Notes: a model not told the origin generated them from the sequence alone. DNA of 64,000 nt from Blautia sp. OF03-15BH (GCF_003463065.1 NZ_QSCM01000012.1:3954-67953); one strand, 5' to 3'. Positions 50,464 through 50,974 are shown, counted from the first letter of the stretch. Made by a program: numbers and translations.

Positions 50464-50628
50464 AAATTTCCTCCTTGTATCAGTTCTGTACTTGTGACTT
50501 TAGTATAAACGTATTCCACAGGAAAAGCTATAGGACAATCAGCTCTTCTTTTTGCTTTTTTTGCACAAACGGCCGTCTTGTCAAAACGGGGTTTACGCCG
50601 CCGCTTTTTCCGTTTATAATATTCCCGG

Positions 50629-50645
50629 GTAACAGTTCAGAACAT
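50629..50645. repeat. Solo MITE TIR-like fragment (GGTAACAGTTCAGAACA)
   Basis: 14/15 match to the MITE TIR, in the GH20/ABC-F divergent promoter region. Confidence 0.35.
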
Positions 50646-50722
50646 AAGCGAAATGAAAAATCAGACTATGCAAACTTGTTTGCAATAGGATGAATTTTTT
50701 ATTTCGGAATGGGCGGAACGGC

Positions 50723-50951
50723 GCTGAGTCCCGGTGGGACTCGTTTAGCGCGGACCGAAATGGAATGTAGATCCATTAGCCTCAGACAAAAGCTGCGAAT
50801 GCAGCGAGAGCGCATGCAATGCGCGGGGTGCTGAGTCCCGGTGGGACTCGTTTAGCACCGACCGAAGCAGCGCGTAGACCTGTGGCCTGTTGTTTTGAAC
50901 GTTCGGAACAGGCAAAGCAGAGCGTGGTCTGTGGCCTGTTGTTTTGAACGT
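50723..50951 (+). promoter_or_regulatory. Structured leader upstream of ABC-F gene: two copies of a 37-bp repeat carrying the GAGTCCC-GGT-GGGACTC hairpin and two copies of the 24-bp repeat CTGTGGCCTGTTGTTTTGAACGT
   Basis: A1 50723-50749, A2 50830-50856, B1 50879-50902, B2 50928-50951; mutually exclusive GCCTGTT/AACAGGC pairings; possible 24-codon uORF 50760..50834. Confidence 0.45.
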
Positions 50952-50974
50952 CCGAAAAGAAAAAAGGAGTATTT

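Follow-up and report, generated by a model that had tools for sequence, protein, structure and literature searches.

A probable mosaic of nested mobile repeats in the structured leader of an ABC-F ATPase gene from Blautia sp. OF03-15BH

The gene for an ABC-F ATPase in Blautia sp. OF03-15BH is preceded by an intergenic region of 511 nt that separates it from a divergent GH20 glycosidase gene. This leader, analysed here within a 64-kb stretch of DNA (the window, to which all coordinates refer), contains two pairs of repeats, termed A and B, together with alternative hairpins, and it raises the question of whether the leader is a regulatory RNA. A preliminary description had read it as a candidate ribosome-stalling attenuator of the type associated with antibiotic-resistance (ARE) ABC-F genes, with a dispersed element like the REP palindromes as the alternative. 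The comparisons reported below favour the latter: the A repeat is dispersed, structured and nested in other repeats, and the B repeat appears to be the 3' arm of a host element that resembles a miniature inverted-repeat transposable element (MITE). We propose, with a probability of roughly 85%, that the leader is a mosaic of nested mobile intergenic repeats and that its riboregulatory look is a by-product.

The components that the preliminary description had listed are present in the sequence, with some of its coordinates off by one. The A repeat is a 40-nt unit at 50720-50759 and 50827-50866 that is 93% identical between the copies, with an exact 25-nt core for which the chance expectation in the window is 0. 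The B repeat is a 29-nt unit (B1 at 50880-50908, B2 at 50929-50957) with an exact 23-nt core, again with a chance expectation of 0, and neither core occurs a further time within the 64 kb. In the outer stem the two A copies differ in a compensatory way (GCGC/GCGC versus GGTGC/GCACC), and a C-G to U-A exchange in this stem is among the three differences that separate them. The heptamer AACAGGC is indeed complementary to GCCTGTT in either B copy (50885-50891 and 50934-50940), and the 24-codon upstream open reading frame (uORF) can be read directly. The leader is far more stable in predicted folding than shuffled sequence (z = -4.4), and in the predicted ensemble AACAGGC pairs with B1 at a probability of 0.3-0.8 and with B2 at 0.06-0.15.

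Structure and dispersal of the A module

The A module measures about 52 nt and comprises a 5-bp outer stem, a GUUUA bulge, a 7-8-bp inner stem, an RGU triloop and the tail GACCGRAGCGRAGCGKAGAC, giving the consensus GGYGC-U-[7-8 nt]-RGU-[7-8 nt]-GUUUA-GCRCC-GACCGRAGCGRAGCGKAGAC. The first relative found (L004; comparison loci and contigs are numbered with the prefix L) lies beside tRNA genes and has an inner stem that is different yet complementary. The hairpin is well supported by covariation: 97.2% of cells pair, nine of the 12 pairs covary and 176 cells carry double changes, while none of 500 shuffles reached the observed covariation and slid registers did not come close either. The unpaired nucleotides, namely the GUUUA bulge, the RGU loop and the 20-nt tail, are strictly conserved.

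A pattern scan of gut metagenome contigs returned at least 127 instances of A in at least about 89 distinct flanking contexts among the matches listed, so that dispersal of the repeats, which the preliminary description had counted against its attenuator, is borne out across these contigs. The 120 genes that neighbour A among the listed matches fall into 154 Pfam families with no more than three genes in any one. None of these matches has an ABC-F gene directly downstream, and the sole nearby ABC-F gene is 2.6 kb off. A link between A and ABC-F genes was also sought through clustering of the neighbouring proteins; the largest cluster looked like ABC ATPases but consists of generic ABC transporters whose geometry is not fixed, and the link was rejected. 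True copies were found by the pattern scan on three viral contigs, whereas a further viral match (L082) looked like a chance occurrence and was not counted. Collections of plasmid and phage sequences contained no match to the leader or the A module. Within the window, weak covariance-model matches at 31044-31095 and 62233-62279 were dismissed as chance, since they lie in coding sequence and share the GC-rich tail alone.

No known RNA family accounts for these sequences. A search of positions 50300-51200 against the 4227 families of Rfam 15 at E <= 1 returned a chance match to osmY only, outside the repeats, and no riboswitch, leader or ribozyme family matches A or B in the leader or its relatives. 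A tRNA gene or pseudogene was likewise rejected as the identity of A, ARAGORN finding only three true tRNAs in L004 and none in the window. Searchable literature yielded nothing on the A sequence or on MITEs in Lachnospiraceae, and the A module appears to be absent from Rfam and undescribed.

Some copies have particular surroundings or forms. Downstream of, and antisense to, tRNA genes, A copies occur at 2570-2730 of L004, ~7815-8025 of L092 and ~6826-7136 of L168. These copies sit within a duplicated tRNA 3' end and terminator, from a tRNA-Arg gene in L004, where CTCTCACGCAYGTCGGTAAAA and the hairpin are present twice, and in L168 two of these units follow one another in tandem. Such units could have originated as an integration scar or as a tRNA-derived repeat. 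Two further copies (L138 and L148) have a 'repaired' bulge, with TAAAC on the 5' strand opposite GTTTA, which creates a perfect 17-bp palindrome (GGTGCTAAACATGTGCC-AGT-GGCACATGTTTAGCACC) and suggests copying of one arm from the other at the DNA level. The pair GTTTAGC and GCTAAAC was also considered as an integron attC site, for which the consensus is RYYYAAC / GTTRRRY; both boxes are off this consensus, the hairpin is too short, and the reading was discarded.

Nesting of A and the host element of the leader

The commonest metagenomic host of A, among the matches listed, is an element of ~245 nt that corresponds to Clostridiales-1 RNA (RF01699), a candidate small RNA (sRNA; Weinberg et al. 2010, PMC2864571). 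Here A is a ~54-nt insert relative to the Rfam model, located in the last hairpin, and three host copies (L155, L167 and L105) score 104-112 bits. The window contains one RF01699 copy (32711-32880, minus strand; 127 bits), which is without A. Copies lacking A are ~50 nt shorter. Where an empty and a filled copy are closely related, A is seen to take the place of 1-4 nt without any duplication, and its insertion sites lie a few nucleotides from one another. Two other loci (L124 and L093) contain two A inserts each, at two other positions, and L081 and L127 represent one locus with and without one A. The Clostridiales-1 copies themselves end in 17-bp inverted sequences, GATGCCAGGGTCAAAAG and CTTTTGACCCCGACATC (the window copy and L155, L158, L162, L167, L171 and L105), and are flanked by a 7-nt duplication, ATNNNAT, that differs at each site. 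Because of these inverted ends and the site-variable flank duplication, Clostridiales-1 RNA behaves, as judged from its sequence, as a MITE that targets -10-like AT-rich sequence. It shares organisms and metagenomes with A and many of its copies harbour an A module. However, A is an insert and not part of the RF01699 model, and the Blautia leader gives no match to RF01699 even at E <= 1.

The leader belongs to a different host element, whose architecture is common to the window and four other loci (L113, L149, L176 and L184). From 5' to 3' this element consists of an arm ending ..CAGTTCAG-nnn, the sequence AGCCNCAGAC, two small hairpins, A, and GTAGACCTGNGGC-nnn-CTGAACGTYCGRAA; the arrangement of its core in the window is also seen in L113, L149, L176 and L104. 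Helix P1 is formed by the 5' arm and the sequence preceding CTGAAC, and helix P2 by AGCCNCAG and CTGNGGC. In the window, the 5' arm GTTCAGAACA pairs with TGTTTTGAAC of B2 or B1 over 10 bp including one G.T, and in the full leader the predicted pairing probability of this arm is 0.91 with B2 and 0.06 with B1. Helices P1 and P2 covary between loci (L113, L149 and L176), and the 5' arm covaries in L113 and L149. Since both helices covary in relatives, B is, on this comparative evidence, the 3' arm of the host element, and B1, with the tail remnant that precedes B2, duplicates that arm. The choice of AACAGGC between two partners follows from this duplication.

The two A copies of the window occupy two different positions in the host element. 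A1 interrupts a host hairpin, GGGCGGAAC..CCCAT, that is whole in L176, and the position of A2 is also occupied by A in L113, L149, L176 and L184. Nesting of A is hence not confined to Clostridiales-1.

The outer ends of the leader element connect it to MITEs in the same window. The terminal motif of the host repeat has nine matches in the window versus 1.2 expected. The window contains two complete 144-bp MITEs (MITE-G) in opposite orientations (47410-47553 and 53963-54106) and a solo end at 37336-37348 (minus strand). The terminal inverted repeats (TIRs) of MITE-G are perfect, GTAACTGTTCAGA(A/G)CC, and its 8-bp target-site duplications (TSDs) are ATTTTTTT and GATTTTTT. The 5' end of the ABC-F leader, GTAACAGTTCAGA, is the terminal repeat of both MITE-G copies. 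As for the features of a MITE, the leader has TIRs, dispersed small non-coding copies and presence/absence polymorphism, and no clean TSD.

In the arrangement that we propose, the outer layer would be a MITE-like host element in which the 5' arm GTAACAGTTCAGAACA and a 3' arm represented by the B unit (CTGTGGCC-TGTTGTTTTGAAC-GTYCGRAA) close a long multi-branched hairpin. The inner layer would be two A modules inserted at separate host positions, with a truncated third unit supplying the second B copy, and the alternative pairing of AACAGGC would be a by-product of the duplicated arm rather than a designed switch. The A module would spread as DNA, most likely as folded single-stranded DNA on which a trans-acting enzyme of the HUH/Y1 type, one that binds hairpins, would act. 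A folded single-stranded intermediate is suggested because A has neither TSD nor TIR, inserts in a fixed orientation and has conserved unpaired bases. Beyond this, A may be an undescribed, very small mobile hairpin of gut Clostridia, or else a portable RNA module concerned with protein binding or stability; we put this forward tentatively, with the odds against it. A mobile hairpin of this kind would insert without TSD and in a fixed orientation into loops of Clostridiales-1 RNA, of the tRNA-derived repeat and of other structured repeats.

Several observations weigh against a mosaic of mobile repeats. The leader element has no TSD at its outer ends, its 3' end is merely a degenerate inverted repeat of the 5' end, and it is the only leader-type element within the 64 kb. 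No transposase or other mobilising enzyme was identified, and no family is enriched among the 120 listed neighbouring genes. The gene downstream of A is co-oriented with it in 49 cases versus 28 (p = 0.02, on a crude ORF-based gene call), several copies lie directly after a TATAAT box and before a ribosome-binding site (RBS) (the window, L113 and L124), and the only three pairs of P1 and P2 that depart from Watson-Crick pairing are G.U, each on the sense strand. These last three points would also fit A as a functional RNA motif, a hairpin bound by a protein or ligand and acting in cis on many mRNAs, for instance as a stabiliser, a processing site or the site of a global regulator, that had become dispersed by recruitment and not by selfish mobility. 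The strong covariation of the hairpin with its strictly conserved unpaired nucleotides and the tandem copies at seven loci (the window, L081, L124, L093, L168, L102 and L140) are in keeping with such a motif. However, all four orientations of flanking genes occur around A (22, 14, 10 and 10 of the 56 fully resolved contexts listed), and in 24 of the 56 A is situated between convergent genes or is antisense to both neighbours. Some copies are antisense beside tRNA genes, the neighbouring genes are functionally unrelated, and there is no Rfam match. Moreover, the presence of A varies within species and within otherwise identical loci, and A lies inside other mobile repeats at varying positions. 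The element in L149 lies upstream of the promoter of the next gene, and hence outside the 5' untranslated region (UTR) there. We consider recruitment of an RNA motif improbable, and retain the mosaic of mobile repeats as the preferred explanation.

The ABC-F locus

If the leader were an attenuator of the ABC-F gene, ribosomes stalled by a drug on the uORF would shift AACAGGC from B2, where it would form a terminator, to B1, where it would form an anti-terminator, and so induce the gene. The parts are in place: besides the uORF and the alternative pairing, the leader has a stable alternative hairpin (-16 kcal/mol) with GUUUUG behind it. The stem that the preliminary description had called terminator-like is, however, followed by GUUGUUUUG with only four consecutive U, and a scan of the plus strand of the leader detected no terminator-like site. 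The RBS of the uORF is weak, and related elements do not conserve the uORF.

The leader is absent from orthologous loci. One genome was taken per species to give 80 orthologous ABC-F loci (77-93% amino-acid identity) from Blautia, Roseburia, Faecalimonas, Mediterraneibacter, Acetatifactor, Coprococcus, Lacrimispora and other genera. None of the 80 has a leader related to that of the window in sequence or structure. Their upstream regions are mutually unrelated and unlike the window, mostly consisting of short leaders behind a -10 box, and searches of them by BLAST and nhmmer with the window leader returned no match. Neither GH20 nor trpS is a neighbour of the ABC-F gene at any of these loci. 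The A covariance model (R1) gave a single match over 1.1 Mb of the orthologous loci, located 5 kb from the ABC-F gene in L004. The conserved leader that an attenuator reading had led one to look for upstream of orthologous ABC-F genes was thus not found in any of the 80 loci. Long, unrelated hairpin-like inserts that contain the window-leader string AGCGAGAGCG lie upstream of two of the orthologues (L011 and L057); they do not match the A covariance model.

Closer relatives provide empty sites. Ten contigs (L205-L214) encode exactly the same 518-aa ABC-F protein, and all ten share the GH20-ABC-F-trpS neighbourhood. The intergenic length is 511 nt in L207 only, as in the window, and 231 nt in the other nine. 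The difference is a block of 280 nt that contains A1, the uORF, A2, B1 and AACAGGC, and that is carried by the window and L207 and missing from L205, L206 and L208-L214. Within the species, this block has either been gained or been lost. In the alignment, the promoter, RBS and B2 are identical in the long and short alleles, the promoter being unchanged across 11 of 11 aligned strains, and B2 is the sole B copy kept in the short allele. The short leader reads GTAACAGTTCAGA|GCGTGGTCTGTGGCCTGTTGTTTTGAACGTCCG and is predicted to fold into a single simple 5' hairpin of the 5' arm and B2. Imperfect 8-nt direct repeats bound the block, CAGAACAT (50638-50645) on its 5' side and CAGAGCGT (50918-50925) on its 3' side, and the short alleles are of two kinds, with CAGAGCGT or CAGAACAT at the junction, matching one or the other flanking repeat. 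The repeats may be a TSD or a substrate for slippage, and the alleles fit either a slippage deletion between them or an insertion with an 8-bp duplication followed by recombination. On either history, the attenuator-like parts of the leader are dispensable and recently variable. The uORF is probably fortuitous; the polymorphic block encloses it completely, and neither related elements nor the orthologous leaders have an equivalent. The coordinates of the leader and its components are collected in Table 1.

Table 1. Positions of the ABC-F gene, its divergent neighbour and the components of the leader in the window
Feature	Position	Strand	Remarks
GH20 glycosidase gene	48565-50463	-	Divergent neighbour of the ABC-F gene
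Sigma-70-type promoter of the ABC-F gene, TTTACG-17-TATAAT	50592..50620	+	10/12 consensus matches; in long and short alleles
Host-repeat 5' arm, GTAACAGTTCAGAACAT	50629..50645	+	Terminal sequence is that of the window MITE-G copies
Presence/absence block, 280 nt	50642..50921	+	Comparison of conspecific strains
A module copy 1 (A1): hairpin 50721-50752 and tail GACCGAAATGGAATGTAGATC	50712..50773	+	Covariance model, 65.5 bits, E = 2e-18
uORF, 24 codons	50760..50834	+	Read directly from the sequence
Core of the host element: 5' strand of helix P2, AGCCTCAGAC, with two small hairpins	50788..50824	+	
Small hairpins of the core: GCTGCGAATGCAGC, GCGCATGCAATGCGC	50792-50805, 50810-50824	+	
A module copy 2 (A2): hairpin 50828-50859 and tail GACCGAAGCAGCGCGTAGACC	50819..50880	+	Covariance model, 74.2 bits, E = 4e-21
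B1, host-element 3' arm (from sequence comparison)	50880..50908	+	CTGTGGCC, P2 3' strand; TGTTTTGAAC, P1 3' strand; end motif GAACGTTCGGAA
AACAGGC	50907..50913	+	Complementary to GCCTGTT in B1 and B2
Truncated third unit: A-tail remnant AAAGCAGAGCGTGGTC and B2	50914..50957	+	
RBS of the ABC-F gene, AAGGAG	50964..50969	+	
ABC-F ATPase gene, 518 aa	50975..52531	+	Widely conserved in Lachnospiraceae

The ABC-F protein has the usual pair of ABC domains joined by a linker and carries no extensions. It passes the generic NCBIfam model for 'ribosomal protection-like ABC-F' proteins (402 versus 380 bits), which would be in keeping with an ARE function, but scores far under the cut-off of every model for a named ARE family (Lsa, Vga, Msr, Sal, OptrA, CplR and producer-type). 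Its nearest solved structures are E. coli YheS and YbiT, followed by PoxtA and EttA. The identity of 77-93% across many genera of Lachnospiraceae suggests a vertically inherited housekeeping paralogue, and the ARE-type ABC-F that had been envisaged is not supported. Under a mosaic of mobile repeats, the long allele would do no more than add length and structure to the 5' UTR of a housekeeping mRNA that is expressed constitutively.

Taken with the absence of the uORF, B1 and AACAGGC from nine of the ten strains with an identical protein and from all 80 orthologous leaders, and with the occurrence of the same repeats before unrelated genes, these results make an ARE-type attenuator highly improbable. 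B1, B2 and their upstream tails do resemble a local duplication of the 3' arm. It is nevertheless hardly credible that the repeats are a tandem duplication found at this locus alone, or an artefact of assembly, unrelated to mobile elements in either case, because many independent assemblies and contexts contain A and A+B units and the long allele was independently assembled in L207.

Comparison with known systems and other features of the window

The leader and its A modules share traits with several families of bacterial repeats. BOX elements of Streptococcus pneumoniae are modular intergenic repeats of the form boxA-boxB(n)-boxC. Like them, the present elements are small, non-coding and highly structured, have modules that vary in number and order, and are intergenic, often within transcripts, and present or absent by strain. 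They differ in having no sequence relation to BOX and in belonging to gut Clostridia, and A is nested in several host repeats whereas BOX has a fixed A-B-C order. The Correia elements (CREE) of Neisseria are MITEs, with which the leader element shares TIRs that form a long hairpin, insertion near promoters or into 5' UTRs, and strain polymorphism. MITE-G in the window, with its perfect TIR and 8-bp TSD, and Clostridiales-1, with its TIR and 7-bp TSD, are close to this type, whereas the leader element has a degenerate 3' repeat and no outer TSD, and A is without TIR or TSD.

The A module itself also resembles REP sequences and BIMEs, which are mobilised by RAYT (TnpA-REP), and PATEs, which are derived from IS200/IS605. 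The likeness lies in a short imperfect palindrome with conserved flanks, insertion free of TSD, a fixed orientation, and a motif of the GTAG/GGAG type by the hairpin. In A, however, this motif is in the 20-nt 3' tail, 15-20 nt past an imperfect hairpin of 32-37 nt, whereas that of REP is directly 5' of the hairpin. The surroundings yielded no gene for a RAYT or Y1 transposase, and A has one main hairpin, not a left-end and right-end pair.

The ARE ABC-F genes vmlR, msrA, vgaA and lsa have leader-peptide attenuators, and the 'uup' motif is a cis-regulatory RNA upstream of ABC-F genes; the Rfam search described above matched the leader to no such RNA. Like the leaders of vmlR, msrA, vgaA and lsa, the Blautia leader is long and structured, precedes an ABC-F gene and contains a short uORF as well as alternative hairpins. 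Unlike them, it has a uORF that is not conserved and no convincing terminator, it is missing in most conspecifics and all orthologues, and its sequence also precedes unrelated genes.

These results remove a false lead, in that the leader is no ground for annotating an inducible resistance ABC-F. More generally, alternative hairpins are weak evidence of attenuation when they derive from duplicated repeat arms. Elements of this kind create strain-level variation in the 5' UTRs of core genes and can confound the discovery of non-coding RNAs and riboswitches in metagenomes. The ABC-F locus itself is of modest interest. What stands out is the A module, a structured repeat that is abundant in human-gut Clostridia and nests inside other repeats, and the likely MITE nature of Clostridiales-1, for which the TIR and variable TSD are sequence-level evidence that this 'sRNA' motif is a transposable element.

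The remaining observations concern the surroundings of the locus. The ABC-F gene is monocistronic and, in the region 52532-52797, is followed by an intrinsic terminator, GAGCCGAAGG..CCTTCGGCCCTCCTTTTTTT, at ~52658-52698. The downstream trpS gene has its own promoter, TTGACT-17-TATAAT, and no T-box was detected upstream of it. One MITE-G copy lies directly downstream of trpS, and the other overlaps the 3' end of an ORF of the AraC family (47512-48438) upstream of the GH20 gene. The product of this AraC-family gene is 308 aa in most conspecific contigs and 300 aa in L210 and L212, a difference that may depend on whether a contig carries the MITE by which the 3' end of the gene is overlapped in the window. 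The window also holds an FMN riboswitch (4579-4697, minus strand; 116 bits) and a skipping-rope RNA (44687-44757, minus strand; 51 bits).

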